Program-made: the position numbers and the translations under genes
Shown: positions 4,054-49,885 of the stretch, one piece after another
Position numbering within the stretch: position 1 is the first letter of the stretch
Layout of the letters: every line of letters starts with the position of its first letter
Notes under the pieces: generated by a model
Databases searched by the model: none
Seen by the model: the letters and a program-made list of their open reading frames with translations, nothing else
What the model was told of the DNA's origin: nothing
Source of the DNA: an uncultured virus (IMG/VR IMGVR_UViG_3300042397_001422)
Taxonomy: Duplodnaviria; Heunggongvirae; Uroviricota; Caudoviricetes
Direction: 5' to 3' (one strand)
Length of the DNA stretch: 64,000 nt
Virus record (IMG/VR): IMGVR_UViG_3300042397_001422

Positions 4054-6534
4054 ATGGCCCGTTTCTTTTTTATTTTGTTACTATTTCCATTTGTAGCGTT
4101 TTCTCAAACCTCCCAATTAAGTGGAGAAACAAAATCCAAAACCGAAAAAATATATTTTTCACATATTACATTTGAAGATGTGAATGGTAATAAGTTTTCT
4201 ACAATTTCTAATGAAAACGCTGAATACAAAATCAATCTAAAATTAGGTGTATATAAAATCAAAGCATCTTATGTTGGTTATACTACCTATACAACACAAA
4301 TAAACTTAATATCAGATACTACATTTGATATTATATTGTTGGATGATACAAAGCAATTATCAGAAGTCGTTGTTAGAGCAGCAAATCAAAAAGTAACTGA
4401 TGTAGCAGTAGTTAGAACAATCCGAAATAGTAATGTAGTATCCGATGGAGTATCCATAGAATTCATTAAAAAAACACCTGATAGAAATGTTGGTGATGCT
4501 CTTAAAAGAGTAAGTGGTGTAACAATCCAAAACGATAAGTTTGTATTAGTAAGAGGATTGGCGGATAGATACAATTCAGCTATCTTAAACAAAACCCTAC
4601 TACCATCAACCGAACCTGATAGGAGAGCATTTTCATTTGATATAATTCCAACAGCATTAATTGATAATATTATAGTTGCTAAATCAGCATCGGCAAATCA
4701 GCCAGGTGATTGGAGTGGTGGATTGGTTCAGATTACAACAAAAGAAGTTTCTGATAACTTTTTTAATATCTCATTGGGAAGTGGTTGGGGTTTAGTTTCA
4801 ACTTTAAAGGATTTTAAGTTAGTTCAAGCTACTGAATTCCCTTCCACATTCCCATCTACATACGGATACCGTGTTAGTAGTAATGGTGATAAAAGATTAT
4901 ACACAAAGCAATTCAGTAATCCAATAGTAGATGGGTTTACTTCATCCCCAAACTTAAATGGTGGATTATCATTTGGTGTAAAGAAAAACAAATTCAACGC
5001 TCTATTCAGTTCAACCCTTAGAAACACATATGGAATAAATTACATAGATAGAATCGATTACCAATCCTCAACCGAATTAGCATACGATTATAGAGATACA
5101 TTGTATACAAAAAGATTTTCCGCAAATGGTTTATTGAATTTAACTTATTTAGGTGAGAACCGATATAGTTGGAAAACATTAGTGAACTATCAAACGGATG
5201 ATTCTTATATGAATAGAAATGGTGAGAACTATGATAATGTTCAGAATGTTCATAGTAATTCATCTAACCACATAAATAATATTGTAGTTAATTCTCAATT
5301 CGATGGTAAACTTAAAACATGGGATTTTAATTTAGGGTATAATTTAATTTTAAGAGAACAACCTGATTATAGAGTTAATCCAATTACAAAATCATTAGGA
5401 GTAAACGAACCATATACTACGGCGTGGAGAGATACATATCGTTTTTGGAGTGTGATGGATGAAAACTCTTTTAGTGGTAACATTAACAAATCATTTGGTG
5501 ATATTAAGATTGGTGGTGGCTACTTAAAAAAGATTAGAGGATTTAATGCAAGAATATTCCGTTATCTTTCAACTGATATGTTAGATGAGATAACAAACAA
5601 TACAGACAAATACACTGCTGATTTTGATTTAGGTAGTGGGTATGTAATGTGGGATAAAGAATTTGGTTTATGGAAATTAAATACAGGTGTTAGAACCGAA
5701 TATAATTTATTTGGTGTATCTACTGCAGATTTTAGTGGAAGTAAAGTTAAAGTTAATAGAGAGTATTTAGATGTATTACCATCTCTAAATCTTTCATACA
5801 ATTTAGAAAAAATAAAGTATAGATTTTCATTAAGTAAAACATTAGCAAGACCGGAGTTTAGAGAAGTTGCTAATTTTGCTTATTATGATTTTGTAAGAAA
5901 TGCACAATTATTGGGTAATCCTAAATTAGAAAAATCTGACATATATAATTTAGATTTGAAATGGGAATTATATCCAAAAGCAGGAGAGAATATTTCAGTA
6001 TCCCTATTTGGTAAGAACTTCATAAAACCAATTGAACAAGTAGTAGCAGATGGGTCAGTTCCATCTAACTTATTATTAACTTACGCAAACCCTGATAACG
6101 CGTATCTTTATGGTGTTGAATTAGAATTTCGTAAAAAGGTAACTGAATGGTTTGATTTTTATACAAACGCTTCGGTAATGAATTCGGAAGTAAACGTGAA
6201 AGGAGTTAAAAGACAATTACAAGGACAATCAAATTATGTATTAAATGGTGGGGTTAATATCCACAAAAACAAAAACACACTTAACGTAACTTACAATAGA
6301 GTAGGCGATAGAATATCAGCAATAGGATTTCAAGGTTATCCAGACATTTTTGAAAATAGTAGAGATGTATTGGATGTGACCCTTTTACATAAATTAAATA
6401 AAGGTGAAATAAAATTGGCAATAGGTGATTTGTTTGGCCAACAATCAATCTATTATCAAAAATTACAAAACCGAAATTTGATAAAAACAAACAATGAACA
6501 AACAATTTCTTTAACATTAAATTTAACATTATGA
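4054..6534 (+). CDS. TonB-dependent outer membrane receptor
   Basis: Signal peptide, N-terminal beta-sandwich, plug (DALKRVSGV, VRGLADRYN), barrel motifs LPSLNLSY, ARPEFRE, GNPKL. Confidence 0.9.
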   Translation: MARFFFILLLFPFVAFSQTSQLSGETKSKTEKIYFSHITFEDVNGNKFSTISNENAEYKINLKLGVYKIKASYVGYTTYTTQINLISDTTFDIILLDDTKQLSEVVVRAANQKVTDVAVVRTIRNSNVVSDGVSIEFIKKTPDRNVGDALKRVSGVTIQNDKFVLVRGLADRYNSAILNKTLLPSTEPDRRAFSFDIIPTALIDNIIVAKSASANQPGDWSGGLVQITTKEVSDNFFNISLGSGWGLVSTLKDFKLVQATEFPSTFPSTYGYRVSSNGDKRLYTKQFSNPIVDGFTSSPNLNGGLSFGVKKNKFNALFSSTLRNTYGINYIDRIDYQSSTELAYDYRDTLYTKRFSANGLLNLTYLGENRYSWKTLVNYQTDDSYMNRNGENYDNVQNVHSNSSNHINNIVVNSQFDGKLKTWDFNLGYNLILREQPDYRVNPITKSLGVNEPYTTAWRDTYRFWSVMDENSFSGNINKSFGDIKIGGGYLKKIRGFNARIFRYLSTDMLDEITNNTDKYTADFDLGSGYVMWDKEFGLWKLNTGVRTEYNLFGVSTADFSGSKVKVNREYLDVLPSLNLSYNLEKIKYRFSLSKTLARPEFREVANFAYYDFVRNAQLLGNPKLEKSDIYNLDLKWELYPKAGENISVSLFGKNFIKPIEQVVADGSVPSNLLLTYANPDNAYLYGVELEFRKKVTEWFDFYTNASVMNSEVNVKGVKRQLQGQSNYVLNGGVNIHKNKNTLNVTYNRVGDRISAIGFQGYPDIFENSRDVLDVTLLHKLNKGEIKLAIGDLFGQQSIYYQKLQNRNLIKTNNEQTISLTLNLTL

Positions 6535-7733
6535 AAAAATTATTAGGTATTATTTTGGTATTAGGATTATTCAGTTGCCAAAAAGAATTAGGTGGTGATA
6601 TAACTCCTATCAATGTTCCAACTTCAACAACTTTGAGTGGTAACATTAACACAACAACAACTTTGACATCAGACAAAGTATGGACATTAAAAGGATATGT
6701 TTATGTAACTGATGGTGCTAAACTTATTATCCAACCGGGTACAACAATTATTTCTGATATTGCAGAGAAAGGTGCATTAATTATTGAAAGAGGTGCACAA
6801 CTTTTAGCAGAAGGAACTTCGGCAAAACCAATTGTATTTACATCAGGCAAAGCAGTAGGTGAAAGAACTCCTGGTGATTGGGGTGGTGTGGTATTATTAG
6901 GTAGGGCAACTACTAATAGAACTTCCGAACCAACTATTGAAGGTGGTATTGGTAGACCATATGGTGGCACTAACGATATAGATAATAGTGGTATTCTAAA
7001 ATATGTAAGAATTGAATACGCTGGTATCGCAGCAATGCCAAACTCTGAAATCAACGCCCTAACATTGGGTGGTGTTGGTAGTGGAACAATCATTGAGAAT
7101 GTTCAAACTATTTACGCTAACGATGATGCATTTGAATTCTTTGGTGGAACTGTAAATGCAAAGAACTTATACGCTTATGCAACTGCGGATGATGATTACG
7201 ATTTTGATTTTGGATATAGAGGTTCAGTATCTTATTCAGTATCAAAGAGAGACCCATTATTTGTAGATGCCGGTGATGCTGGAAATGGTGTAGAGTGTGA
7301 TAATGATGGAACAGGTACATCTGCACAACCATTCACACATCCTAAATTAGATAATATGATTTTAGTTGGACCATTTGATGTAACCGCATTAGCAAACCAC
7401 AATTTAGGTTTAAGATGGAGGAGAGCAACTCAATTCACAATTACTAACTCAAAGATTGTTGGATATCAAAAAGGTGGATTCTCAATGGAAAGTAATGAAA
7501 CTGCACAGGCATATAAAGATGGTGTAAGTAAGTTCCAAAATAATGAGATTCAGGCGTATGAACCATTATTAAACTTCAAATCAACATCAACTATATTTAC
7601 TGCAGCTGATATGAAGGTAAAAGCTTTATCAGAGGGTAACAAACAAGTATCTTATACAAAAGCTGAAATGGAAATATTATCCAAACCAATATGGATTAGT
7701 GGTTGGACTAGATTCCCAACAAAAGGTAATTAA
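6531..7733 (+). CDS. surface lipoprotein, beta-helix (pectin-lyase-like) TBDR partner
   Basis: Lipobox LFSC; PIVFTS, GDWGGVVLLG, DNSGILKYVRIEYAG, DDAFEFFGG. Confidence 0.75.
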   Translation: MKKLLGIILVLGLFSCQKELGGDITPINVPTSTTLSGNINTTTTLTSDKVWTLKGYVYVTDGAKLIIQPGTTIISDIAEKGALIIERGAQLLAEGTSAKPIVFTSGKAVGERTPGDWGGVVLLGRATTNRTSEPTIEGGIGRPYGGTNDIDNSGILKYVRIEYAGIAAMPNSEINALTLGGVGSGTIIENVQTIYANDDAFEFFGGTVNAKNLYAYATADDDYDFDFGYRGSVSYSVSKRDPLFVDAGDAGNGVECDNDGTGTSAQPFTHPKLDNMILVGPFDVTALANHNLGLRWRRATQFTITNSKIVGYQKGGFSMESNETAQAYKDGVSKFQNNEIQAYEPLLNFKSTSTIFTAADMKVKALSEGNKQVSYTKAEMEILSKPIWISGWTRFPTKGN

Positions 7734-7777: not shown

Positions 7778-8011
7778 ATGATATATAAGGTTATAGATGT
7801 GCCGGTAAACGACCCATGTGAAGAATGCATTTCATGTATGAGGCTTAAATTAATGGAAATTGGATTCGTGAGTGGACAGGACATTGAGATACAAAAAAAA
7901 CAATGGGGGTTATATGTTATCAATCTGGTTTCAAAACAAGGACACGTTGAACAAACTATAGCATTAAGAGAAGAAGAATTTAATCGAATTTGTTTAAAAG
8001 AAAAAAATTAA
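7778..8011 (+). CDS. feoA: FeoA-domain protein
   Basis: RLKLMEIGFVSG...IALREEE, SH3-like FeoA pattern. Confidence 0.7.
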   Translation: MIYKVIDVPVNDPCEECISCMRLKLMEIGFVSGQDIEIQKKQWGLYVINLVSKQGHVEQTIALREEEFNRICLKEKN

Positions 8012-8033: not shown

Positions 8034-8062
8034 AAGTCCCCCAATAAAAATGGGGATTTTTT
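8034..8062 (+). terminator. probable terminator
   Basis: AGTCCCCCA...TGGGGATT followed by T run. Confidence 0.55.
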
Positions 8063-8074
8063 ATTTATACCTAT

Positions 8075-8794
8075 ATGCTAAAAGAAATACTTACTATCGT
8101 TATACCTTGTAAAAATGAAGGTATTAACATTTACGATTGTTTAGGTTTAATTTGTAAACAATCTGATATAGAAGGAACTAATGTAGTAATTGCAGATAGT
8201 TCCGATGATGCGGATTCACTTTATTGGTTAAGCAGGGCAAGAATCGATTTTGGGTTCTCCATAGTAATTCATACCATCAATGGTGGATATCCTGCTAAAG
8301 CCCGTCTAAATGGTTCACAATTGGTAAAAACACCATACGTTCTATTCTTAGATGCGGATGTGATGTTAAGAAATAAAAATCTATTAAAAAATATATGGGA
8401 AACTTCACTTGCATATTACGAAGTAGATTTAGTAACAACTCCATTTCAGACAGAAAAGGGATGGAATTGGGTTTTCCGTATTTTTGATAAATTTCAAAGA
8501 TTGAGCACATTATTAGGTACACCATTTGCAGTAGGAGGATTTCAGATATTTAATACCAAAACCTATTGGGAGATTGGTGGATATAATCCCGAAGAATTAT
8601 TTGCAGAAGATTACTCACTTTCATCTAAAATAAATCCAAAGAAATTTTGGATTCATAAAACAAAAGGAGTGTGGACATCTGCAAGGCGATTTAAAAATAA
8701 AGGAGTATTATGGATGTTTAAGATAATGATACTAAGTTATATAAACCGAAATAATCCTAACTTCTTTAAACACCACCACAACTATTGGACATGA
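8075..8794 (+). CDS. family 2 glycosyltransferase
   Basis: IVIPCKNE, LFLDAD, GGY..ED, TSARR. Confidence 0.85.
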   Translation: MLKEILTIVIPCKNEGINIYDCLGLICKQSDIEGTNVVIADSSDDADSLYWLSRARIDFGFSIVIHTINGGYPAKARLNGSQLVKTPYVLFLDADVMLRNKNLLKNIWETSLAYYEVDLVTTPFQTEKGWNWVFRIFDKFQRLSTLLGTPFAVGGFQIFNTKTYWEIGGYNPEELFAEDYSLSSKINPKKFWIHKTKGVWTSARRFKNKGVLWMFKIMILSYINRNNPNFFKHHHNYWT

Positions 8795-9507
8795 AATATC
8801 AAGCAATCATAGTATCAGATTTACACTTAGGTATAAAAGATTCTAAAACTGATGAATTCATAGAATTTATAGAATCACATCCTACGGAATTATTAATTCT
8901 TAATGGAGATATAATTGATGGTTGGGCATTGAATAGAGGTTCTAAATGGAGAAAATCGCATACCAAAGTAATCAGTAAGTTATTAAAGATTTCTAATAAA
9001 ACTCGTATTATTTGGATTAGAGGAAACCACGATGAATTTATTCAAGAATTTATGAATAATCACATTGGGTCAATTGAAATAAGAGAGGATTATATCCTAA
9101 ATGTGAACGAAAAAAAATACTATTGTTTTCATGGAGATGTCATCGATGTATTCATTACAAAATATAAATGGTTATCAAAGATAGGTGCAGTGGGATATGA
9201 TTTTGCACTTTGGTTAAATAGAGTTTACAACACATATCGTAAGTGGAGAAAACTACCTTACATATCCATCTCACAAAAGATTAAAAATTCAGTTAAGGTT
9301 GCAACAAATTATGTAAATGATTTTGAAACCACCGCATTATCAATGGCAACTAAAAAAGGATGTGATGGAGTTATATGTGGGCATATCCATCAACCAGAAG
9401 ACAGAATGATAAACGATAAGAGATATTTAAATAGTGGTGATTGGATTGAGAATATGAGTGCAATTTGTGTTGATGGAAATGGAATGTTATATTTATATAA
9501 AAGATAG
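8791..9507 (+). CDS. metallophosphoesterase, PlcP-like phospholipase C (LpxH-related family)
   Basis: SDLHLG, GDIIDGW, GNHDE, HGD, CGHIH, YLNSGDWIE. Confidence 0.8.
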   Translation: MKYQAIIVSDLHLGIKDSKTDEFIEFIESHPTELLILNGDIIDGWALNRGSKWRKSHTKVISKLLKISNKTRIIWIRGNHDEFIQEFMNNHIGSIEIREDYILNVNEKKYYCFHGDVIDVFITKYKWLSKIGAVGYDFALWLNRVYNTYRKWRKLPYISISQKIKNSVKVATNYVNDFETTALSMATKKGCDGVICGHIHQPEDRMINDKRYLNSGDWIENMSAICVDGNGMLYLYKR

Positions 9508-9511
9508 TCCT

Positions 9512-10339
9512 ATGAAAAGTATAATAACCTTATTGGTATTATTACCAACGTTAGCATTTTCACAAGTATCAACTTGGAGACAAAGTGGTGGAAGTGTTCC
9601 GGCATCATCACAAATATCACAATCAACTCAAACAAGAGTTCAACCATCTGTACCACAACAAAATAATGTGAGTAGCTGGAGAAACAATCCACCAGAAACA
9701 TCTAAACCAAACTATAATATAATTGCACGACCAAACAATTGGCGATGGGGTGGTAATAATTGGGGTTGGCAATGGAATAATTGGGGATGGTATCAACCAA
9801 TGCCTTACATTTGGTATGATGATTACGGATGGAGACAAAGAAGTGTAATTCATGTATACGAAAGTGGTAAAAGAGATACTATTAGAAAAGAAAGAGTTTA
9901 TACCTCATTTGGATTTGGGCATACTACTAATAAACAAGCAGCATTTTGGGGAATCGTTGGTGGTAAAAAATCATATTTCATTATGGATTATGTAATGACT
10001 TATGCAATAGACCAAAACCAATACTATCCATATGGTCAAATTAATAATGTTGACTTTCCACTTAGTAAAGAAGATTGGAAAAAAGAATCAACTTTATATG
10101 TAGGTGGTGGTAAACGAATTGGTAAAATAGGTATACATGGTATGATAGGATTTGGTAATGAAGTTATCAGATGGCAAGGTAAAGATGACTTAGGTGGTAT
10201 CTCATTTCCAAAATCAAATTCCTCATTCACTACATTTAAAGTTGGTGTTATAAAAGATTTCAAATTCGTTACATTAAAATTAGAAACTGACCCAATTAGA
10301 GGGTATTCTCAAATTTCAATCGGATTGAATAATAAGTAA
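9512..10339 (+). CDS. secreted, probable outer-membrane barrel protein with W/N-rich N-terminal segment
   Basis: Signal peptide; amphipathic strands in C-terminal half. Confidence 0.55.
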   Translation: MKSIITLLVLLPTLAFSQVSTWRQSGGSVPASSQISQSTQTRVQPSVPQQNNVSSWRNNPPETSKPNYNIIARPNNWRWGGNNWGWQWNNWGWYQPMPYIWYDDYGWRQRSVIHVYESGKRDTIRKERVYTSFGFGHTTNKQAAFWGIVGGKKSYFIMDYVMTYAIDQNQYYPYGQINNVDFPLSKEDWKKESTLYVGGGKRIGKIGIHGMIGFGNEVIRWQGKDDLGGISFPKSNSSFTTFKVGVIKDFKFVTLKLETDPIRGYSQISIGLNNK

Positions 10340-11862
10340 TGAAAAAATGGGTAGTAAACTTTATAATAATTTGTATTGTTCTATTTGCACAAAAAGTAAA
10401 TGGTCAAGTATTCACGCAATCATTTGTAGATAAATGTACTGGTGAAATAAAAATTGCAACCACAACTTATGTAAGAGGTAATGCAGTGGTTTCATTTTAT
10501 AATCAAGTTCGAACATTCACTCCCCTTGAAGTACAAAGTGGTATATTAAATGCATGGTTACAAACTACCTATTTGGCATATTCCACATTAGGGTGTCCAA
10601 CTAATGTAGTAGTTCAACAAACTGTCCAACAAGCAGTAACTCAGGCTGCAGCACAAGCAGCAGCCGCAGCAGCATCCGCCGCCGCACAAGCAGCAGCAGA
10701 TGCAGCAGCAAAAGCAGCATCGGATGCAGCAGCAAAAGCAGCAGCAGATGCAGCAGCAAAAGCAGCAAGTTCATCCGCGAGTGGTGCCGCATCATCATCC
10801 GCTTCTTCGGCAGCAACCTCATCTGCAACAGCAGCAACTTCATCAGTAGCAACTCCACCACCAACATCAACACCTCCACCTGCAAGTAGTAGTTCAACAC
10901 CTCCACCTGCAAGTAGTTCTTCATCATCAAGTAGTGGTGGGTCTTCATCAAGTTCATCATCATCTGGCTCATCTACGGAGAGTAAGACCGAAACTAAAAC
11001 TGAAGCTAAAACAGAATCGAAAACCGAAGAAAAGAAAACCGAAACTAAATCAGAGGAAAAGAAAGAGGAAACTAAGTCTGAAAGTAAAGAAGAGAAAAAA
11101 GAGGAAAGTAAATCGGAAGAAAAGAAAGAAGAAAAAAAGGAAGAAAAGAAAGAAGAAAAAAAGGAAGAGAAAAAAGAGGAAAAGAAAGAAAAGAAAAAAA
11201 CTGCAGTTACAAATCCAATGATGTTATCATCTGATTTAGCAGGAACTGAATCCGCAGATGGTGAATACGCAGTAATGATGTCAGTAGGTGTATCTAAATC
11301 ATCTCTAATGGGTGATAAATCATATTCCAGCTCTGCATTAATATGGTCTACATTTGACCAATTTGCACTATCATCAGGAGTTACTAAAATGGTAATAGCA
11401 GATGGTAAATTAAAAGCACTTAATAGTTACTCATTAACATCTGCATATCTTAAAGGTACGTTGATGGGATTAATGGGATATACATGGATTAAACCACACC
11501 CAACATTGGGTACATTTGGATATAACTTAGGTGCAATTATGTTAATGATGAAAGGTACTGAAATGAAATACAATACATCATTCTCAACCTCAGTAGTGGT
11601 ATTTTGGACTAAACCATATCAATACTCAAGAAAACTTACGATTTCACCTCAGATATTTGTAATGTCAGCACCTATTGCTTATAATTCACTAACAGGTGGA
11701 ACATCCGTAAGTAGAACACCTGGTGCTTTATTAGGAACTGCTATTGATTATAGAATTAGTAAAAGATTTGGATTTAACTTTGGATATAAAGCAAATATAG
11801 CGTTTGAACCAGAATTCAGTTTGTTGCATAATTTCCAAATTGGTTCTAAAATGACATTCTAA
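10339..11862 (+). CDS. secreted protein with Ala-, Ser- and EEKK-rich stalk and probable C-terminal beta-barrel
   Basis: Signal peptide; low-complexity repeats; alternating strands ending in Phe. Confidence 0.65.
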   Translation: MKKWVVNFIIICIVLFAQKVNGQVFTQSFVDKCTGEIKIATTTYVRGNAVVSFYNQVRTFTPLEVQSGILNAWLQTTYLAYSTLGCPTNVVVQQTVQQAVTQAAAQAAAAAASAAAQAAADAAAKAASDAAAKAAADAAAKAASSSASGAASSSASSAATSSATAATSSVATPPPTSTPPPASSSSTPPPASSSSSSSSGGSSSSSSSSGSSTESKTETKTEAKTESKTEEKKTETKSEEKKEETKSESKEEKKEESKSEEKKEEKKEEKKEEKKEEKKEEKKEKKKTAVTNPMMLSSDLAGTESADGEYAVMMSVGVSKSSLMGDKSYSSSALIWSTFDQFALSSGVTKMVIADGKLKALNSYSLTSAYLKGTLMGLMGYTWIKPHPTLGTFGYNLGAIMLMMKGTEMKYNTSFSTSVVVFWTKPYQYSRKLTISPQIFVMSAPIAYNSLTGGTSVSRTPGALLGTAIDYRISKRFGFNFGYKANIAFEPEFSLLHNFQIGSKMTF

Positions 11863-15954: not shown

Positions 15955-16482
15955 ATGATTTCAAGAAATTTATTTACTGAAAGTAAAAACCTACGAATAT
16001 TTGATTTTGATGATACCCTTGTCAAAACAAACTCTTATATCTACGTCACCCATGCAAATGGAATGAAAAGTAAATTAACTCCTGGTCAATATGCGGTGTA
16101 TACTGAAAAACCTGGTGATGTTTACGATTTTAAAGATTTTGAACAGGTAAAAGAACCACAAGAGATACAAAAGATAACTAAAATTCTTAGAGGTATCGTT
16201 CAAAAAAGTAAAGAGGTAGTGTATATCCTAACAGCACGAGCAGCTTATCAACCAATCAAAAAATATTTAAACGATATTGGTATAAATTCTAAAAAGATTT
16301 ATGTAGTTGCACTTGCATCTAATAATCCAAAAGATAAAGCAGATTGGATTGAAAATATGATTGATAAGGAGGGGTATGATGATATTTATTTTGTGGATGA
16401 TTCAGAGAAAAATGTATCAGCAGCAAAACAAATGTTGAAAACAAAGAACGTAAAGTGGAGAGTTCAGCATATAAAACATTAA
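15955..16482 (+). CDS. HAD-superfamily hydrolase
   Basis: FDFDDTL, LTAR, K, FVDD motifs. Confidence 0.8.
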   Translation: MISRNLFTESKNLRIFDFDDTLVKTNSYIYVTHANGMKSKLTPGQYAVYTEKPGDVYDFKDFEQVKEPQEIQKITKILRGIVQKSKEVVYILTARAAYQPIKKYLNDIGINSKKIYVVALASNNPKDKADWIENMIDKEGYDDIYFVDDSEKNVSAAKQMLKTKNVKWRVQHIKH

Positions 16483-28217: not shown

Positions 28218-28397
28218 ATGACCTATATTACTGCACATCTACCGGAGTTAAAAAAATTAAAATCGGAATTAGAAGAAAATCCTAATGCGATTAAACGGTA
28301 TTTAAAGTATGAAGGGTTTTCTAGTACACATAGTGGTTCTATTGATTATCTTGATATGAAGATAGAAGAATATTACAAATCAAAACAAAATGATTAA
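28218..28397 (+). CDS. hypothetical protein (59 aa)
   Basis: Short ORF overlapping the MTase start. Confidence 0.5.
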   Translation: MTYITAHLPELKKLKSELEENPNAIKRYLKYEGFSSTHSGSIDYLDMKIEEYYKSKQND

Positions 28398-29718
28398 ACC
28401 TTTCTCTATTTTAGACACTCGTACAAAAGAGTGGCAAGATAGAAAGAGATGGTGGATTAATACCTATAAAATTCAATCCGAATTAGGTAGAGAACAAACT
28501 ATTTCCAAAACAAATTTTTGGGATACTGAAGAACCTTCCGTATCAATATTTGATGCTACATTATGTGAATTGATGTATGATTGGTTTTGTCCCAAAGGTG
28601 GAACTATATTAGACCCATTTGCAGGAGGTAGTGTTAGAGGAATAGTTGCATCAGAAATGGGATACCATTACACAGGTATTGATATATCAGAAACTCAAAT
28701 CCTTGCAAATCAAAAACAATCTGAAAAACCAAATTGGATAGTAGGTGATAGTGCAACGATATTGGAAACACTTGATGATGAAACCTATGATTTTGTATTT
28801 ACATGTCCACCTTACTACGATTTAGAAATATATTCTGATAATGAAAACGATTTATCAAATATGGATGATGAGGATTTTGATGATGCATATGCACACATTT
28901 TAACTGAGTCCTATTCTAAACTAAAAGATAATAGATTCTTTTGTATAGTTCTATCAGAAACCCGTGAGGTATCTAAGACAGGGAATTATAAAATTGGTAA
29001 GTATCGAAACTTAGTTGCTAAAACAATAATGGGATGTGAGGAAATTGGTTTTAGTTTTTATAACGATATGGTGTTATTTAACTCACAACATCAGGCATCT
29101 AAAATATCCAAAACATATTTTGATAGAAATCGAAAAATAGCATCGGTTCATCAAAACGTATTAGTATTTGTAAAGGGTAATCCTGATTTAGCAACTGAAG
29201 ATATTAATTGGGATGGTTCGTATAAATGTATTGTAGATGGGATTAGATATAAATCATTCAGAGAAGCAGCAATATCAATAGACCCAAATGAATTAGTTGC
29301 AACGGAGATAGAACGTAGATGCAAATCTACTAAATCAAAATACAAAGATTGGCAAATAGTAGGAGCAGAAACCAAACCCACAATTCGATATGAGGTGGAT
29401 GGTATTCCATTTGAAACTCCTAAACAAATAGCAGAACTAATTGGTGGAGATTTTAGTGAACAACGAGCTCGTAATTTTATAGATTCCGGTAACTTAAAAT
29501 ACCGTCATTGGAAAAAAACTGATGAATGGGATATTACATATGATGAAATGGAAAAACTATGGAACGGCACAATTCGTATAGAAGTGCCGATAATTAGTTG
29601 TGAAGGTATGGAGTTTTATTCCTTATTAGAAGCAGCAAATCACTTTAAATGTTCAGATGAAAGAATACGTCAGAAATTAAAATCTGATAAATATTTGGAT
29701 TTCCTTTATATTGATTAG
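28390..29718 (+). CDS. DNA amino-methyltransferase with C-terminal NUMOD1-like repeats
   Basis: DPFAGG (SAM binding), TCPPY (catalytic); three similar C-terminal modules. Confidence 0.8.
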   Translation: MIKPFSILDTRTKEWQDRKRWWINTYKIQSELGREQTISKTNFWDTEEPSVSIFDATLCELMYDWFCPKGGTILDPFAGGSVRGIVASEMGYHYTGIDISETQILANQKQSEKPNWIVGDSATILETLDDETYDFVFTCPPYYDLEIYSDNENDLSNMDDEDFDDAYAHILTESYSKLKDNRFFCIVLSETREVSKTGNYKIGKYRNLVAKTIMGCEEIGFSFYNDMVLFNSQHQASKISKTYFDRNRKIASVHQNVLVFVKGNPDLATEDINWDGSYKCIVDGIRYKSFREAAISIDPNELVATEIERRCKSTKSKYKDWQIVGAETKPTIRYEVDGIPFETPKQIAELIGGDFSEQRARNFIDSGNLKYRHWKKTDEWDITYDEMEKLWNGTIRIEVPIISCEGMEFYSLLEAANHFKCSDERIRQKLKSDKYLDFLYID

Positions 29719-39168: not shown

Positions 39169-39909
39169 ATGAAGATTTTAGTTATAGGCGATAATTGCAC
39201 GGATGTGTTTATTTATGGTCGTTGCGAACGATTAAGTCCAGAAGCACCAATACCCGTCTTTGAACCCTCAAAGACCATTACCAACGATGGAATGGCAGGA
39301 AACGTAGTTGCAAATCTACGCAAGTTGGGAGTGGAAAAAATTGAATTAATATCTAACCACGAACAAATTACAAAGACTCGATATGTAGAGGAAAAATCAA
39401 ATCAAATGCTTTTAAGAGTGGATTCTAATGATAAAGTTAGAAACACCTTTGATGTAAAGAAAGTAGATTTTGATTCATATGATGCAGTAGTAGTTGCGGA
39501 TTATGATAAGGGATTCCTAACCCTAAAAGATATTCAAGATATTTCAGAAAGAGCCAAGTTATCATTCATTGATACTAAAAAAGTAATAGAACATAATTAC
39601 TTTGAAAATTACACATTTGTTAAAATGAACGAAGTGGAGTGGGAAAACTGCTTGAAACATGGTGCAGTATATGATGAGTGGGAAAGTAAATTAATAGTTA
39701 CCATGTCTGAAAGAGGATGTATGTATCAACGAAAGAGATACTCAGTTGATAATTCAATTGAAGTACGTGATTTAAGTGGAGCAGGTGATACCTGGATGGC
39801 ATCATTTGTTTTTAGGTATATAGAAACATTGGATGTATCTGAATCAATAGAATTTGCAAATCAAAAAGCAACTCTTGTAGTACAAAAGAGAGGCGTATCA
39901 ACTATATAA
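39169..39909 (+). CDS. PfkB-family sugar kinase, RfaE/HldE kinase-like
   Basis: RLSPEAPIPV, GMAGNV, DYDKG, DLSGAGDT. Confidence 0.85.
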   Translation: MKILVIGDNCTDVFIYGRCERLSPEAPIPVFEPSKTITNDGMAGNVVANLRKLGVEKIELISNHEQITKTRYVEEKSNQMLLRVDSNDKVRNTFDVKKVDFDSYDAVVVADYDKGFLTLKDIQDISERAKLSFIDTKKVIEHNYFENYTFVKMNEVEWENCLKHGAVYDEWESKLIVTMSERGCMYQRKRYSVDNSIEVRDLSGAGDTWMASFVFRYIETLDVSESIEFANQKATLVVQKRGVSTI

Positions 39910-39912
39910 AAA

Positions 39913-40317
39913 ATGACAGAACGAAAGTATTTACCTACACTAGCAGAATTGATAGATAGATTATCAATCTCACAATTAAAAGAAGTATTCATTGCAGACC
40001 ATAAATCGGAATATGCAAAAGAAATAGATGAAATTGTTCATGATATTGAATTAATTTTAAGCGAAACTGATGGTAGATTAACAGGTGAACAAGTGAGGGC
40101 AATTGTAGTTCTTGCACAAATGAATTTACATATTTGGCATAACGAATCCAATGTGAGAAATGGAGTATCTGGTGCAAACGCGTTGACCCTAACTCATGGA
40201 TTGAATGGTATCAGAAACACTGCAAAGAATAAGATACAAGAAGTGGTAGGTGGTAGAAAGGATTATAAGATAGATTGTTTGGCATCTGATTTTAAAGACT
40301 GGGAAATTAGTTGGTAG
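39913..40317 (+). CDS. hypothetical helical protein
   Basis: TLAELIDRLSI..LK, N..IWH.E. Confidence 0.65.
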   Translation: MTERKYLPTLAELIDRLSISQLKEVFIADHKSEYAKEIDEIVHDIELILSETDGRLTGEQVRAIVVLAQMNLHIWHNESNVRNGVSGANALTLTHGLNGIRNTAKNKIQEVVGGRKDYKIDCLASDFKDWEISW

Positions 40318-40318
40318 T

Positions 40319-41137
40319 ATGAATATATTAATTTCTGGATGTAGTTTTACTGCTCCTCAAAATGGATGGTCTTCAAATTTCTCAAAAAAAGACCCAAAAT
40401 TTAATATATCAAATATAGCACATCATGGTGCAGGGAATACCTATATACGGAGACAAATTCAAGCTGAAATATTTCGAAAAAGTAGAATAAATAATAATAA
40501 AAAATATGATTTTGTGATAATTCAATGGTCTACAATTGATAGATGGGATTATCCAATTTCATTTATGTCTGAAGATGATGCCCCACTAATTAAATTAAAT
40601 TTACATAATGATGATTGGGTTGGTAAAGTTGGTTATACTAGAAATGGTACATCATTAGAAGGTAAATCTAAAATATTTTATGAAAATTTATATTCTAAAT
40701 ATGGTCAGTTATTAAATACATTAGATGATATCTATTATACTCAATTATTTTTAGAGAATTTGGGAATACCTTATTTAATGTTTTCAATTGCAAACTTTTT
40801 AACAACTGAAGCATCATTTGATATGATAAAAAGTATTGGAGATATTAAAGGTGATTTACAAAAACAAAAAATAAACAAACTGGAAATTGAAAAATTGATG
40901 AATTATTCTGAAGAATCAGATTCATTGGAAATTATAAAAAAGAAAATAAATTGGGATAAATTTATTTGGAGTAGTGATTTTAAAATTGATAATATAGGTG
41001 ATGGCTTTACTGAATATTTAATAAATAAAGGCGAACCTTTTAAACAAACTGGAAATCATCCTGATGAAACACAACATACCAATTTTTTTAACGATATAAT
41101 ATACCCAAAATTTATTTCTGAAATTAATAGTATTTAA
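40319..41137 (+). CDS. SGNH/GDSL-like paralog
   Basis: SGCSFT, GAGN, QWS..R, NHP. Confidence 0.6.
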   Translation: MNILISGCSFTAPQNGWSSNFSKKDPKFNISNIAHHGAGNTYIRRQIQAEIFRKSRINNNKKYDFVIIQWSTIDRWDYPISFMSEDDAPLIKLNLHNDDWVGKVGYTRNGTSLEGKSKIFYENLYSKYGQLLNTLDDIYYTQLFLENLGIPYLMFSIANFLTTEASFDMIKSIGDIKGDLQKQKINKLEIEKLMNYSEESDSLEIIKKKINWDKFIWSSDFKIDNIGDGFTEYLINKGEPFKQTGNHPDETQHTNFFNDIIYPKFISEINSI

Positions 41138-41138
41138 T

Positions 41139-41924
41139 ATGATTAACAAAAAAGTAGAATGGGATAGAAATAAAGAGGAAGGATTTCCTCGAGTTACAAT
41201 TGATAACTTTTTAGACCAGGAAACCTGCATGAAACTTTATGAGGAATGCGTGAATGCTCCCAAAGGTGGATGGACAGTATTTACCAGAGCAGGTTCTCGT
41301 ATGGAAGAGTTCAATGACCTAATTTCACTACCAACCGCACATAGAGTTACATACGATATAATGCATTCAGGCGAGTTCTTATATCAACTTGAAAATATGA
41401 CAGGAATTGTAGGATTATTACCTGACCCACATTTAGTTGGTGCAGGATATTCTATTTTAAGAAAGGGAACGATATTATCTCCACACTTTGATTTCAATTG
41501 GAATGATAGATTACGATTACATAGAAAACTTACAGGGATATTATATATCACACCGAATTGGAAATCAGAATGGGGTGGACACAACGTAGAGTGGACATCA
41601 AACCCTGAATTAGACCCAGATGCAAAAATAGTTGAATCCATTGCACCACTATTTAATCGTTTTATTATTTCTGAAAATGTAACAAAAGGGCCAGTTCACT
41701 CAGTAAGTAAAGTTGATTGTCCTGATGATGTATATGGTAGATGTGCGATACGTTTCTTTTATTACATTTCAACATCCGAACCAGATAAAGAAAATCCACC
41801 ACATAGAAGTACCTATACTACAAATGATTACTCACACCATAAACTGCATGAAGATGCCGAATGGAGTGGGCATTTTGTTGGTAAAGGAGGCGAAGATTAT
41901 GGGTATACTCCTAAAAATACATAA
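41139..41924 (+). CDS. 2OG-Fe(II) oxygenase
   Basis: IDNFL, HFD, WGG, P.FNR, HS, R. Confidence 0.85.
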   Translation: MINKKVEWDRNKEEGFPRVTIDNFLDQETCMKLYEECVNAPKGGWTVFTRAGSRMEEFNDLISLPTAHRVTYDIMHSGEFLYQLENMTGIVGLLPDPHLVGAGYSILRKGTILSPHFDFNWNDRLRLHRKLTGILYITPNWKSEWGGHNVEWTSNPELDPDAKIVESIAPLFNRFIISENVTKGPVHSVSKVDCPDDVYGRCAIRFFYYISTSEPDKENPPHRSTYTTNDYSHHKLHEDAEWSGHFVGKGGEDYGYTPKNT

Positions 41925-41927
41925 TTG

Positions 41928-42740
41928 ATGAATAAAACAAATCTGATAGTAGGTGGATGTTCATTCTCCGAAGGACATAATTTAGGTAATAATGGAAGTT
42001 GGGCATATTGGATATCCCAACAAACTGGTCAAACACTTCACAATTTAGCAAAAGGTGGGGTAGGGAATGAATTCATCACCCAAAAAGTATTATCATTTTT
42101 AATTAGTAATCAAGAAATAGCAAAAGATTCAGTAGTAATGATTGGTTGGTCCGAACCAACTAGACAAATGGTATTTTTTGAACCACACGAAGGTTTGGGT
42201 TGTTTTCATTCGATGCAACCGGAAGATTTCATTGATGAGAATAAAGAAAATGATATTTGGCAAGGTGATATACTTACACCACATGGATGGGTGAGAAAGA
42301 ATAAAGATTCACTCTGGCCATTTTTTTCTTCGTTGCGTTATTGTATATTTAAAACATATTATAATATGATTACGCTTAAAACTTATTTGGAAGCAAACAA
42401 TATTCCTTATATTTTTTTTGATGCAATTAATCCAACCAAAATATTAATAGATAATTCATTAAGACAGTTTAAAATAAGAAAATACCCAAATGATATAAAA
42501 TATTCAGTAGAAAATATTGGAGATTTTTCAAGTATACTGAATGATGGGGTAGTTGATTACATTTACAATAAAAATTTTATATCATTTGATGGATTAAGTA
42601 TTAATGAATGGTTATGGAAAAATGGTAAGAATGAATATGAAACTCTTACTAATGGAAATAATGGTCATCCAAATGAATTAGCATCAAAGGAATTGGCAAG
42701 TTACATATTAAACGAATATGCGAGATTATACAATAAATGA
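41928..42740 (+). CDS. SGNH/GDSL-like paralog
   Basis: GGCSFSEG, NLAKGGVGN, GWS..R, GHP. Confidence 0.6.
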   Translation: MNKTNLIVGGCSFSEGHNLGNNGSWAYWISQQTGQTLHNLAKGGVGNEFITQKVLSFLISNQEIAKDSVVMIGWSEPTRQMVFFEPHEGLGCFHSMQPEDFIDENKENDIWQGDILTPHGWVRKNKDSLWPFFSSLRYCIFKTYYNMITLKTYLEANNIPYIFFDAINPTKILIDNSLRQFKIRKYPNDIKYSVENIGDFSSILNDGVVDYIYNKNFISFDGLSINEWLWKNGKNEYETLTNGNNGHPNELASKELASYILNEYARLYNK

Positions 42741-43341
42741 TAGTTGGGATTGGGTTACCCATTTTGAAAATGAAATAGCAGATTACTGTGGTTCAAAATA
42801 TGGAATTGCATGCGATTCAAATTCTAATGCAATTCGCTTGGTATTACACTATTTGGGTATAGTTGGTCAAGAAATTGGAATACCGGCAAGAACGTATGTA
42901 TCCGTCCCAAACCAAATTATCCTATCTGGTAACAAACCTATATTCGAAGATTACGAATGGGATGGGTTATATAAATTTGATGGTGTCCCAATAGTAGATG
43001 CAGCAACTGCGTTTCATCAAGGAATGTATGATGGTGAAAATTATATGATATTATCGTTTCATATTAAAAAAATCCTAAACATTGGACAAGGTGGTATGAT
43101 ACTTACCGATGATGAGAAATTCAATGAGTGGGCAAGACCGATGATATACGATGGTCGGCATAAATACAAATTATATAAAGAGGATGAGTTTGATTGTATA
43201 GGTTGGCATATGTATATGTCACCAGAACAAGCACAGAGAGGATTAGAAATATTTCATTCATCAAAGATACATTCAAATAATCCACATTGTGGTGGTAGTT
43301 GGTTGTACAACGATTTGAGTACACAAAAAATATATCAGTAA
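42718..43341 (+). CDS. DegT/DnrJ/EryC1/StrS-like PLP protein (short form)
   Basis: FENEIA.Y.G, VDAA, SFHIKK, GQGGMILTDD; only 207 aa. Confidence 0.75.
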   Translation: MRDYTINDSWDWVTHFENEIADYCGSKYGIACDSNSNAIRLVLHYLGIVGQEIGIPARTYVSVPNQIILSGNKPIFEDYEWDGLYKFDGVPIVDAATAFHQGMYDGENYMILSFHIKKILNIGQGGMILTDDEKFNEWARPMIYDGRHKYKLYKEDEFDCIGWHMYMSPEQAQRGLEIFHSSKIHSNNPHCGGSWLYNDLSTQKIYQ

Positions 43342-44060
43342 TGAGTAAAATACTATACACACATGGTGATTCCGTAGTATGGGGTGCTGAGTTAGAGAAT
43401 AAAGAAACCGAAAGGTTTTCGCATCACATAGCAAAACACTTTGATTGGATAGATTGCAACAATGCAACTGCCGGAGTTTCAAATGATTATATATATCGTC
43501 AAACAATTAGAGATGTATCTCGTTGGATATTTGATAGAAATATATGGAGTGAAGAAACTGGTTGGGTATATTCGGATGAACTTATTGTATCAATTGGATG
43601 GACATCCCCAACAAGATTTGAATGGTGGACAGGTGATTCATATCAACAAGAACGATTATGGGTGGGATATGATAAATGGGGTGAGAATGATAAAGATAGA
43701 ACAACCGAAGACCAATTCGTATTACATCAGACAGAAGATATTCCATCATATATCAGAACATTTAATCAGATAATTAGTTTATCTGCTTTTTTAGATAAAC
43801 ACAATATACCATACTATTTTTTTAATACATTTTACGATTATAGATTACCAGAAGAACCTGAAGATAAAATAGATAAATTTGGTAAACGTACTAATCAATT
43901 AGATTTGAAAGTATTGTGGAATATGTTACCTGATGAATTTACATTTGGTACTATGTATGATTATATTAAATTTATGGGTGAAGGATTCTTACCACGTAAT
44001 CACCCAACAGCAGAAGCACATTTAGAATGTGCAAAATTTATAATAAATGAATTGGAATAA
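43341..44060 (+). CDS. SGNH/GDSL-like paralog
   Basis: HGDSVVWG, GVSN, GWT..R, NHP. Confidence 0.6.
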   Translation: MSKILYTHGDSVVWGAELENKETERFSHHIAKHFDWIDCNNATAGVSNDYIYRQTIRDVSRWIFDRNIWSEETGWVYSDELIVSIGWTSPTRFEWWTGDSYQQERLWVGYDKWGENDKDRTTEDQFVLHQTEDIPSYIRTFNQIISLSAFLDKHNIPYYFFNTFYDYRLPEEPEDKIDKFGKRTNQLDLKVLWNMLPDEFTFGTMYDYIKFMGEGFLPRNHPTAEAHLECAKFIINELE

Positions 44061-45285
44061 TTACAAATACATAATTACATCTGGTTGTAGTTATAGTGTT
44101 TTAATTGAAAACACAATACATACCCATACGCATTATGAAAAAATACATAGTGAATTCGGTGAATTAGAAAAAAGTGCATTAGACAATGGTTTAACAAACC
44201 CAAAAATTATTCAAACAAATAGTGATGATAATATTATTAATATTGATGTAAGTTTACCATCACAAACATCAGAATGGATTTTACATTCTACTCAATATGC
44301 TATTCAAAAATTAATACAATTAGGAGTTAAATTGGAAAACATTTATTGTTTTGTGGAGTGGACTCAGTATAATAGATATTCCATACCACATGATAGTTAT
44401 ATAAAAATATCAGATGTAAAAGTAAATAGTTTTTTAAAAGTATATAGTAAAGATACTAAATTGAATATTAATTATATAAAAAATCAATTTAAATTTGGAA
44501 GACTTGATGAATTAATAAACGTAGGAGTTATTGAAAATAGATTATATTTATCTGCCAATCAATTAATACCTACCAATTTTAAAAATTTACCAACTGAATG
44601 GGAACTTTGGTACGAAACACATAAAACTAGATATCATAAAACAAGTAATATAGAATTATTAACAAAATATTTAAGTAATATTATATCATTACAATCTTAT
44701 TTAAAATCATTAAATATTCAATATAATTTTTGTAATATGCAATGTGAGTTTGCTGGATGGGTTACAAATGGGTTTGAATATGAACAAAAAATAAAACTTG
44801 GCCGGAAATATCATCCATATTATTTGAATGGAAAAGATGAAATAATATATAATAATCAATATATAGAAACCATTAAATTAGGAGAACCTGTTGAAATTGT
44901 ATATCCACAGATAACACACTTATATAACCTAATTGATTTTACTAATTGGTGGTTCTATGAATCAGATAATTCTTCTCGTGGTGGTATTGATGAATATATG
45001 TTTGATACATATGGAATTCACGCTTATACAAAAATAAAAAATGATACTCAATTACCTACTCAAGAATTTATAGGTGGACCAAATTGGCATCCAACTGAAT
45101 TACTATATACTTTATTACATGATAAAATATGTTTTAATAATCCCTTTTTTAAAATAAATCCAAAATGGATTACTTTTATAAATGATAAATTAAATGAAGA
45201 TATTAATTATGATGGTATTAGTAAAAATAATTTAACATATTCTACTAAGTACATCAATAATTTTATAAAATATGAATCTAAATAA
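44047..45285 (+). CDS. SGNH-like paralog (long form)
   Basis: SGCSY, VEWTQ..R, GGIDEY, WHP. Confidence 0.55.
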   Translation: MNWNNYKYIITSGCSYSVLIENTIHTHTHYEKIHSEFGELEKSALDNGLTNPKIIQTNSDDNIINIDVSLPSQTSEWILHSTQYAIQKLIQLGVKLENIYCFVEWTQYNRYSIPHDSYIKISDVKVNSFLKVYSKDTKLNINYIKNQFKFGRLDELINVGVIENRLYLSANQLIPTNFKNLPTEWELWYETHKTRYHKTSNIELLTKYLSNIISLQSYLKSLNIQYNFCNMQCEFAGWVTNGFEYEQKIKLGRKYHPYYLNGKDEIIYNNQYIETIKLGEPVEIVYPQITHLYNLIDFTNWWFYESDNSSRGGIDEYMFDTYGIHAYTKIKNDTQLPTQEFIGGPNWHPTELLYTLLHDKICFNNPFFKINPKWITFINDKLNEDINYDGISKNNLTYSTKYINNFIKYESK

Positions 45286-46471
45286 CTACAAATATATCGT
45301 AGCAAGTGGTTGTAGTTATGCAACTACACTCAGTAGTTTAGAAGTTAAAAATTTAGATGTTAAATTAGATACATCAGATAATTTAATTTTTATTGAAGTT
45401 GGATGTGCAAGTCAGAGTTCTGATTGGGCTTACGATAGTGTAATACACACAATAGAAACCCTTTTTAAATTAGGAGTTAAGCCTGAGAATATTTATTGTT
45501 TTGTAGAATGGACTCAAATTGAAAGAATTACTATTAATCAAGCTGCATATTCACATCAACTTTTAAATAATAATATTGCTAAAGAAAAATATAAAAATAG
45601 ACATTTTTATATTAAAGGTAATAATAATGAAATAATTCAACAATTATACGATTCAATCAATATTAAGTGTTTACAAGATGTGCATAATATAATGTCAATA
45701 GATGGGCTATTTTATATAAACCCATTACATACCGACCCAACTGATATTTCGAAATTAAATGATATTGATTTTGAATTTTATTTTAATATAGGACTAGAAT
45801 ATGAATTAAGAATTCCATTTGAAGTGCGTGTTAAAAAATACTTAGATAACATATTAAATTTACAACGATATTTAAAATCTAATTTAATTGATTATAATTT
45901 TGCTATGATGCAATCACAATTTAGTGCATGGGCTAGTGGTAATAATGATAATATAGTTCACAAATATGAATCATATTTAAATAAACCAATGATAATTAAT
46001 GATGGAATACTTAAACAAAATATCAAATTTAAAAAGAATTTAGATATATCTGAAAAAGATGATTTGGTTAATATATTTCCACAATTTAATTCATTATTTA
46101 ATAAAATTGATTTATCCAATTGGTGGTTTTATAACAAAGGTGGATATCGTTATGGTGGTATTGATGAATATGCATTAGAGGAATATGGTGTGTATGGATA
46201 CTTATCCGCTTGTCAAGATGCAAGATTTGATATGGAGTTAAATCCAGAAAGATTTATAGCATCGTTTGGATACCACCCACATCCATTTGTTCATGTTTTA
46301 TTAGTAAACGAGATGTTATTTAATAATAAATTCTTTAAAGTATCTGATGAAACCATTACTAAAATTAAAGATATGGTAACTGAAGATATTAATTCTAAGA
46401 ATAAAACAAAACATAATTTAGCAATTTCAAAAGTTGAGTATGACAAATGGATTAATAACACCATTATTTAA
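45272..46471 (+). CDS. SGNH-like paralog, tandem duplicate of 44047
   Basis: SGCSY, ENIYCFVEWTQ, NWWFY, GGIDEY, YHP. Confidence 0.55.
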   Translation: MNLNNYKYIVASGCSYATTLSSLEVKNLDVKLDTSDNLIFIEVGCASQSSDWAYDSVIHTIETLFKLGVKPENIYCFVEWTQIERITINQAAYSHQLLNNNIAKEKYKNRHFYIKGNNNEIIQQLYDSINIKCLQDVHNIMSIDGLFYINPLHTDPTDISKLNDIDFEFYFNIGLEYELRIPFEVRVKKYLDNILNLQRYLKSNLIDYNFAMMQSQFSAWASGNNDNIVHKYESYLNKPMIINDGILKQNIKFKKNLDISEKDDLVNIFPQFNSLFNKIDLSNWWFYNKGGYRYGGIDEYALEEYGVYGYLSACQDARFDMELNPERFIASFGYHPHPFVHVLLVNEMLFNNKFFKVSDETITKIKDMVTEDINSKNKTKHNLAISKVEYDKWINNTII

Positions 46472-46488
46472 AAAGTATATATTTATAT

Positions 46489-47478: not shown

Positions 47479-47794
47479 TATAACAATTAATATTATAGAC
47501 AGAGTAAATAATTTACACACATTAGAAGCTCCAACAAACATGAGTATGAATTTGATGGAATTCCTAAGAGCCAATGAGTTTGGAATAGAAGGAACTTGTT
47601 CAGGACTTGGAATGTGTTCTACTTGTCATGTTTATATAAACTCTGATAATGAGTTAGTAAAAATGGGTACGATTGAAGATATGATGTTAGATGATGTTGG
47701 TGATTTAAGAACGGCAAAATCAAGATTGTCATGTCAATTACATTTGACTGATAAATTAAATGGACTTGTATTAGAACTACCAAAACTAAATTAA
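47471..47794 (+). CDS. 2Fe-2S ferredoxin (adrenodoxin/Isc-Fdx type)
   Basis: CSGLGMCSTCHV..SRLSCQ. Confidence 0.9.
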   Translation: MSSITINIIDRVNNLHTLEAPTNMSMNLMEFLRANEFGIEGTCSGLGMCSTCHVYINSDNELVKMGTIEDMMLDDVGDLRTAKSRLSCQLHLTDKLNGLVLELPKLN

Positions 47795-47796
47795 AA

Positions 47797-48831: not shown

Positions 48832-48832
48832 A

Positions 48833-49822: not shown

Positions 49823-49885
49823 AAATTTATTTCCTAAATTGTGTGAAAAACTCAATTTATATATAAACACACTAGAATCAAAATA

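Follow-up and report, generated by a model that had tools for sequence, protein, structure and literature searches.

Overlapping glycosyltransferase and metallophosphoesterase genes in large freshwater phages, and a possible role in remodelling host membrane lipids

The window analysed here is the whole 64,000-nucleotide stretch of DNA from the uncultured virus IMGVR_UViG_3300042397_001422, and our subject is a pair of overlapping genes on its plus strand. The upstream gene (8075–8794) encodes a 239-residue GT2-family glycosyltransferase with a GT-A fold (hereafter GT2; PF00535, E 3.2e-13), and the downstream gene (8791–9507) encodes a 238-residue metallophosphoesterase (MPE) of the LpxH2/PlcP type (PF00149, E 8.8e-15, and PF12850). 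At the junction (...GGACATGAAAT...) the MPE start codon ATG (8791–8793) lies over the GT2 stop codon TGA (8792–8794). The ATGA overlap (8791–8794, plus strand) reported in the initial annotation is therefore present, and from the sequence reading we take the two genes to be translationally coupled through it. The open reading frame (ORF) listing offers an alternative MPE start, a TTG at 8785 that would give 240 residues (8785–9507); the ATG at 8791 is the likely start because most relatives are 238 residues long. The MPE translation contains SDLHLG, GDIIDGW, GNHDE, HGD, CGHIH and YLNSGDWIE, every one of the motifs first listed for it, and a helical insert (YDFALWLNRVYNTYRKWRKLPYISISQKIKNSVKV). 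The GNHD motif occupies residues 78–81, or 80–83 if counted from the TTG. A terminator-like hairpin followed by a T run (8039–8055, plus strand) was found by consensus scan 20 nt 5′ of the GT2 start and may form the 5′ boundary of a two-gene unit; the scan gave five such sites in the window against 3.3 expected from shuffles, which is near chance and makes the site weak evidence. Promoter consensus matches in the window were also at chance (47 sites versus 47.9 expected).

We regard both ORFs as real genes rather than chance reading frames, because their identity is kept across viral loci (67–100% for the MPE in 80 loci and 40–100% for the GT2 in 75) and the catalytic blocks are invariant in both alignments. 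Contigs from RNA libraries of four freshwater runs cover parts of the GT2 and MPE genes, and two of them cross the junction at 8791 (X19 record 5 and X22 record 16). Such libraries can contain DNA, and this coverage is therefore not counted as transcription.

The proposal that the pair is phage-encoded is borne out by four observations: (i) the MPE is 100% identical to MPEs on IMG/VR contigs of 229,287 and 237,724 bp; (ii) the long non-overlapping ORFs of the window all lie on the plus strand; (iii) PHROG matches in the window include an endolysin (E 5.5e-72), an HNH endonuclease and a DNA methyltransferase and (iv) the contig of a relative (L014; 287,455 bp, CheckV 100% complete) carries the GT2–MPE pair together with a terminase large subunit gene. 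A DNA-level similarity search against the phage collection gave no match for the window, and DNA of the window is found in lake-water metagenomes of many studies. The best protein match in the phage collection, the 'UNVERIFIED Bacteriophage sp.' record MT836169 (MT836169.1; L243), was rejected as a phage on account of its bacterial gene order of TyrRS, MPE, PF13528 transferase and polyphosphate kinase (ppk).

The association of the two genes extends well beyond the window. A scan of viral sequences yielded 388 stretches encoding an MPE relative, from which 80 loci were kept for neighbourhood analysis, and a GT2 homologue lies immediately 5′ of the MPE gene on the same strand in 75 of these, with gaps of −6 to +287 nt. 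The phage-type GT2 is found in none of 79 cellular loci. The sole exception among the 80 genome loci originally collected is L081 (PLXT01000052.1), a contig binned in a Methanobacterium metagenome-assembled genome. This contig has the GT2–MPE pair, an intein-containing gene and ORFs on one strand, and its MPE groups with the phage sequences in the tree; the contig is therefore probably misfiled phage DNA. The pairing is thus phage-specific (75/80 viral versus 0/79 cellular loci).

For the family placement of the MPE, 215 sequences were gathered, duplicates (L164–L167 and L171) were removed and L170 supplied the E. coli LpxH sequence. Identity thinning left 93 rows, comprising 25 of 82 phage sequences, 23 of 79 named cellular sequences, 17 of 25 strong Bacteroidota matches, 22 of 23 LpxH-side sequences, four intermediate rows and the homologues from pelagiphage Mosig and Synechococcus phage S-SRM01. 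The tree is a maximum-likelihood tree from an IQ-TREE quick search with SH-aLRT support only, and it contains neither LpxG nor the validated PlcP proteins (S. meliloti SMc00171, Phaeobacter MED193_17359, SAR11 PB7211_983 and P. aeruginosa PA3219). One deep split with a support of 100 separates 24 LpxH-side rows, consisting of E. coli LpxH and 23 weak-match Bacteroidota rows that represent second paralogues, from the other 69. The 69-row side holds the phage clade, Mosig, S-SRM01 and all of the glycosyltransferase-linked relatives from Bacteroidota and Verrucomicrobiota. Within it the 25 phage rows are monophyletic (support 96), and a subclade unites them with their closest cellular relatives (support 93). 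Clustering with LpxH had been named at the outset as the outcome that would overturn a PlcP-type assignment; in the 93-row tree the MPE does not group with E. coli LpxH and lies across the split from it. The E. coli sequence forms a very long branch, which calls for the usual long-branch caution, but the 23 Bacteroidota rows on that side support the same split.

Profile scores and pairwise identities agree with this placement. The NCBIfam LpxH models cover the MPE from end to end and score below their cut-offs (NF003743, 60.6 against 134 bits; TIGR01854, 42.8 against 190.35 bits). The scan of genome contigs for cellular relatives yielded Bacteroidota and Verrucomicrobiota sequences and a single further contig. 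The closest cellular relatives are 44–52% identical to the MPE, with about 50% for Emticicia and 44–48% for Verrucomicrobiota and Bacteroidales; identity to the LpxH-side paralogues is only 23–27%. Emticicia and Bacteroides genomes each have two LpxH-like genes at separate places, and NF003743 scores the phage-like copy at 35–40 bits and the other copy at 75–94 bits. Some match to the MPE occurs in 72 of the 81 Bacteroidota genomes sampled, and in 26 of them it is strong (at least 34% identity and E <= 1e-40); the remaining matches are 22–32% identical. Taken with the motif and neighbourhood data below, the MPE is very probably an enzyme of the PlcP/LpxH2 type and not LpxH.

Two arguments first advanced for this assignment have to be given up. 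The first was that a GNHD sequence in block III, in place of GNRD, is diagnostic. The change from His to Arg in block III is described as LpxH-specific and is documented for proteobacterial LpxH (PMC5016852, PMC3087551), and the Arg is described as binding the phosphate of lipid X (PMC5016852). None of the five MPE blocks varies across 42 sequences from the PlcP-like side, and GNHD is also present in 20 of 23 LpxH-side rows, with GNRD in the other three (E. coli and two Emticicia rows). The rule fails outside Proteobacteria in this dataset; as a sequence feature, the GNHD of the phage MPE agrees with a non-LpxH assignment and proves nothing.

The second argument took the helical insert as a mark of PlcP. 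In the AlphaFold 2 (AF2) model of the MPE (pLDDT 85), a core is elaborated by an insertion of ~80 residues formed by helices 116–188. Foldseek matches 1–24 of this model are all LpxH (TM ~0.6, rmsd ~13 Å, with the insertion aligning poorly), the best solved-structure match by sequence is also LpxH (E 5.8e-6), and the insert is better described as a lid of the LpxH type. The MPE thus resembles LpxH (PDB 5k8k, 5b49 and 8qjz) in having an MPE core with a helical lipid-binding insertion, but differs from it in its block III His, its scores below the cut-offs, its position on the opposite side of the tree and the poor alignment of the insertion. LpxG, the chlamydial UDP-2,3-diacylglucosamine hydrolase, is described as having no conserved LpxH-type insertion (PMC5016852), whereas the modelled phage MPE has one; this comparison is by description. 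We also considered the aromatic content of the lid, a property described for the insert of PaLpxH2 (PMC5016852), and rejected it as a discriminator: values are 0.151 for the phage proteins, 0.132–0.140 for cellular PlcP-like proteins and 0.148 for the Bacteroidota LpxH-side proteins, and only E. coli LpxH is low (0.078).

The gene context of the cellular relatives is more informative. Forty non-redundant cellular loci fall on the PlcP-like side, and 36 were evaluated (L152, L153, L193 and L195 were left out; in the L193 genome no transferase is adjacent to the MPE relative). In 31 of the 36, a GT-B glycosyltransferase is fused or immediately adjacent to the MPE. All 14 Verrucomicrobiota loci encode GT4 and MPE in a single ORF of ~650–785 residues (L090–L158, e.g. 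L106:4861–6864 and L121:4447–6804), a natural fusion of the two pathway steps. In Bacteroidota, 17 of 22 loci have a PF13528/PF04101 (GT28-like) or GT4 gene directly 3′ of the MPE gene, with GT28-like partners dominating, and ppk follows in L107 and L097. The exceptions include L175, where the neighbour is CdsA, and L177 and L196, where the neighbours are unrelated. As judged from gene order, this is the pattern of a PlcP–glycosyltransferase pathway. It fits published accounts in which plcP homologues occur in Flavobacteria and Verrucomicrobia and fall into several neighbourhood types, some with non-Agt transferases (PMC4796936), and in which a 'PlcP' (pf12850) and a pf04101 glycosyltransferase of Flavobacterium johnsoniae are strongly induced by phosphate depletion (Fjoh_4577 and Fjoh_0541 in the table of PMC8115612). 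No characterisation of the products of the Bacteroidota or Verrucomicrobiota partner transferases was found in the literature searched.

The phage GT2 differs from these partners. It matches no GT4 Pfam domain and does not have the Agt-type GT-B fold; its AF2 model (pLDDT 95.1) has a GT-A fold. Invariant residues in 24 phage GT2 representatives are the DAD motif (D93 and D95), E178-D179 and R204-R205. The window GT2 borders on the GT21 model PF13506 (21.5 bits against a cut-off of 21.7), and 14 of the 24 representatives match this model at E <= 0.001 (best 4.6e-10). No transmembrane segment was found in the GT2 (maximum KD19 hydropathy 0.93), and residues 126–146 are predicted to form a strongly amphipathic helix with a hydrophobic moment of 0.71 at 126–143. 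These two features are compatible with a lipid acceptor, and the modelled GT-A fold is compatible with diacylglycerol in that role. The fold itself was rejected as a guide to the acceptor, as the Foldseek and VIA-align matches are near-tied generic GT2 enzymes. ESM Atlas neighbours of the GT2 are mostly viral clusters, and their automatic names (WcaA, mftF-like and diaponeurosporenoate glycosyltransferase) serve as leads only.

A GT2 partner had been thought notable because the usual partner of PlcP is a GT4 enzyme, and on this point the novelty is smaller than supposed: GT28-like partners dominate in Bacteroidota, and diacylglycerol transferases of the GT2 and GT21 families are already known in MG517 and Pgt, respectively (PMC6506492, PMC8231724, PMC4796936). 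Like MG517 of Mycoplasma genitalium and the processive Pgt of rhizobia (PMC8231724; Devers 2011 as cited in PMC4796936), the phage GT2 is of the GT-A type, has no transmembrane segment and has an amphipathic helix suited to monotopic binding. Unlike them it is short (239 residues) and only borders on the GT21 model; the comparison is by description, not by sequence. In some marine bacteria, plcP adjoins a Pgt-type gene (neighbourhood types 3 and 5; PMC4796936).

Taking these lines of evidence together, we consider it somewhat better than an even chance that the pair is a phage version of PlcP–glycosyltransferase lipid renovation, in which phospholipase C activity, transfer of a sugar to diacylglycerol and a gain of phosphorus are combined. 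The part of the initial proposal that stands draws on the position of the MPE on the non-LpxH side, the glycosyltransferase links of its relatives and the conserved, coupled pair; the motif and insert arguments fall away. As to what the MPE cleaves, what the GT2 glycosylates and how the phage gains, we infer the following scheme. The MPE, an Mn2+-type enzyme with an LpxH-like lipid-binding lid, would act as a phospholipase C on the inner side of the host membrane and cleave glycerophospholipids to diacylglycerol and a phospho-head group. The co-translated GT2, peripherally associated with the membrane, would move a sugar from a nucleotide sugar onto the diacylglycerol, and the product, a glycolipid without phosphorus, would preserve the bilayer. 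In lake water poor in phosphorus, the phospho-head group would enter the phosphate pool from which phage DNA is made. With roughly 2e7 phospholipid molecules in a bacterial envelope and 4.6e5 phosphorus atoms in a 230-kb double-stranded DNA genome, the lipid pool would cover ~45 genomes.

The closest characterised parallel is the PlcP–Agt lipid renovation described for S. meliloti, Phaeobacter sp. MED193, SAR11 HTCC7211 and P. aeruginosa PA3219/PA3218 (PMC4796936, PMC8528852, PMC9239053). The phage pair shares with these proteobacterial systems an LpxH-related MPE with a block III His and a helical insert, an adjacent glycosyltransferase and links to phosphate scarcity. It differs, by description, in that the genes are in a phage, the transferase comes first and the partner is a 239-residue GT-A (GT2) enzyme rather than a GT-B enzyme of GT4. 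The closest relatives, with which it shares a side of the tree and a tight coupling to glycosyltransferases, are the Bacteroidota PlcP-like/GT28-like systems (L082–L160 and L172–L196) and the Verrucomicrobiota GT4–PlcP fusions; it is set apart from these cellular systems by its GT2 and by the separate branch of the phage MPEs. Another parallel is with phage pstS. Pelagiphage Mosig encodes an MPE homologue (38% identical, PlcP-like) that adjoins its phosphate ABC transporter gene (pstS), and both pstS and the pair discussed here would be phage genes that raise phosphorus supply during infection. The source would differ, being the membrane lipid pool in one case and external phosphate in the other.

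Several observations weigh against the lipid-renovation scheme or narrow it. The label 'PlcP-like' rests on the non-LpxH position in the tree, gene context and the literature. The lid region of the MPE model is of low confidence (pLDDT 56–81). For the GT2, the structure matches are near-tied generic GT-A enzymes (Foldseek and VIA-align; VIA-align Z 17–19), and a profile search of the 81 Bacteroidota genomes found no close cellular homologue (best 68 bits). Nor is the pairing universal: in five of the 80 viral loci no GT2 was found in the stored flanks, even with a phage GT2 profile, and the MPE stands beside primase, PD-(D/E)XK nuclease or thymidylate synthase genes. An adjacent transferase was likewise not found beside the MPE homologues of Mosig, S-SRM01 and a 595-kb uncultured phage. 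Because some phage MPEs stand without an adjacent transferase, glycolipid synthesis is not an obligatory part of the scheme. In one Bacteroidota relative (L173, 109–1377; genome G075), the MPE gene directly follows one for a Kdo transferase (PF04413), which is a lipid A-core enzyme; no other neighbour tied to lipid A was seen. Finally, no enzyme that would dephosphorylate the phospho-head group was recognised in the window, where the only lead is a HAD-like or polynucleotide-kinase-type protein (15955–16482; PF13419, DUF2608 and phrog_415). It is speculation that this protein is a candidate phosphatase that frees phosphate from phospho-head groups.

The same chemistry might serve a purpose other than phosphorus supply, namely a change in the envelope that bears on superinfection exclusion, receptor masking, lysis timing or resistance to host or competitor factors. 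Surface-modifying glycosyltransferases are common in phages, and one structural match of the GT2 is TarP, an enzyme encoded by a prophage. The neighbouring genes of the window, described below, encode outer-membrane or secreted proteins (a TonB-dependent transporter, a lipoprotein and proteins with signal peptides), and lipid remodelling has been tied to phage attachment (PMC9804370, PMC9938194). We think this purpose unlikely, however, because relatives of the MPE keep company with phosphate genes (ppk in cells and pstS beside the Mosig homologue) and PlcP acts on inner-membrane phospholipids rather than on surface receptors. The five viral loci that keep the MPE without a GT2, beside genes of DNA metabolism, also argue against it.

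Different substrates are a second alternative, and one that we would also assign a low probability. The MPE could act on CDP-diacylglycerol, undecaprenyl-diphosphate sugars or UDP-sugars, and the GT2 on polyprenyl phosphate or a polysaccharide. The top VIA-align match of the GT2 is indeed PcManGT, a DPMS-like mannosyltransferase (Z 19.1 over 218 aligned residues), and further structure matches include DPMS, ArnC and GtrB, but unrelated GT2 enzymes lie within ~1 Z unit of the top match. Polyprenyl-phosphate GT2 enzymes normally have C-terminal transmembrane helices, and the phage protein has none. No near counterpart of the GT2 that could suggest its function was found in the 81 Bacteroidota genomes, and its acceptor cannot be read from the fold, which leaves room for this alternative. 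The consistent fusion or adjacency of the MPE relatives to GT4 or GT28-like lipid transferases (31/36 loci), by contrast, points to diacylglycerol.

That the MPE is a true LpxH, a UDP-2,3-diacylglucosamine diphosphatase with which the pair would raise or alter host lipid A and lipopolysaccharide (LPS) synthesis, is very improbable: the JGI names of its relatives, its best NCBIfam and PDB matches, the filing of such viral genes under LPS biosynthesis in surveys (PMC9611531, PMC10653327) and the Kdo transferase beside one relative all lean this way, but the scores fall far under both LpxH cut-offs, the block III residue is His rather than Arg, a support-100 split separates the MPE both from the E. 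coli enzyme and from the LpxH-side paralogues found alongside its relatives within single genomes, and its identity to the transferase-linked group (44–52%) is well above that to those paralogues (23–27%).

Phosphorus is often limiting for bacteria and for the phages that build DNA inside them, and known phage phosphorus responses act on uptake, as with pstS. In the literature searched we found no paper describing a phage PlcP or a membrane-lipid source of phosphorus in phages. If the lipid-renovation reading is right, a phage enzyme pair that liquidates host membrane phospholipid would constitute a new auxiliary metabolic class and would tie viral infection to lipid and phosphorus cycling in lakes; the GT2 would add a compact type of lipid glycosyltransferase. 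A routine mis-annotation, by which viral 'lpxH' is counted under LPS biosynthesis, would also be mended. The module is a common one, given the 388 viral stretches with an MPE relative and the lake-water metagenomes of many studies in which the window DNA occurs.

Upstream of the pair are two further genes on the plus strand whose order with respect to the MPE gene recurs in cells. The first (4054–6534) encodes an 826-residue outer-membrane protein resembling TonB-dependent transporters (PF13715, PF07715 and PF14905), which is full length and combines a signal peptide with CarboxypepD_reg, Plug and barrel domains. The second (6531–7733) encodes a 400-residue lipoprotein with no Pfam match that is 38–45% identical to proteins in L241 and L242. 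In these two loci, from two Bacteroidota genomes, transporter homologues lie just 5′ of the PlcP-like gene with a lipoprotein homologue between them. The Emticicia-type loci L135 and L089 have a transporter homologue within 6 kb of the PlcP-like gene and a lipoprotein homologue nearby. The window order of transporter, lipoprotein and PlcP-like gene thus matches cellular Bacteroidota loci, and a transporter homologue is present in only four of the 80 viral loci, which suggests that in this sub-lineage the block was captured from a host. A transporter and 'FI' lipoprotein pair with the same Pfam make-up is reported to be induced by phosphate depletion in Flavobacterium (PMC8115612), and the pair at 4054–7733 may be related to it, the likeness being one of Pfam make-up only.

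Extending from the window to its relatives, we tentatively propose, at somewhat less than even probability, that a module for mining phosphorus, in which a host-captured PlcP-type phospholipase C is joined by a phage-specific GT2 diacylglycerol transferase, is present in large freshwater phages with Bacteroidota-type hosts and turns host phospholipid into glycolipid and phosphate during infection, that the transporter and lipoprotein genes were co-captured in the lineage of the window and that the many viral 'lpxH' genes assigned to LPS biosynthesis are lipid-renovation genes.

Other features of the window are noted briefly. Between the lipoprotein and GT2 genes, a 77-residue ORF (7778–8011) matches FeoA weakly and below the cut-off (E 9e-4), and genome G012 (locus L241) has a FeoB gene within a few kb of its PlcP-like gene. 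A class 3 lipase (1741–2520; PF01764, E 7.7e-28; phrog_21992, esterase/lipase) is encoded 5.5 kb 5′ of the pair, so that this phage region has a second gene for lipid degradation. Downstream, a 507-residue protein (10339–11862) has a signal peptide and extended Ala/Ser and Lys/Glu repeat tracts of low complexity, with homologues in 29 of the 80 viral loci. A DNA methyltransferase (PF01555) at 28390–29718 is fused to a DNA-binding domain of the I-TevI type (PF20987). Positions 39169–50692 contain a series of genes of the kind that modify sugars or nucleotides (PfkB kinase, 2OG-Fe(II) oxygenase, a DegT aminotransferase fragment and DUF6071), followed by several family-less ORFs of 330–410 residues, and the GC content at 44–50 kb is 0.24–0.26.

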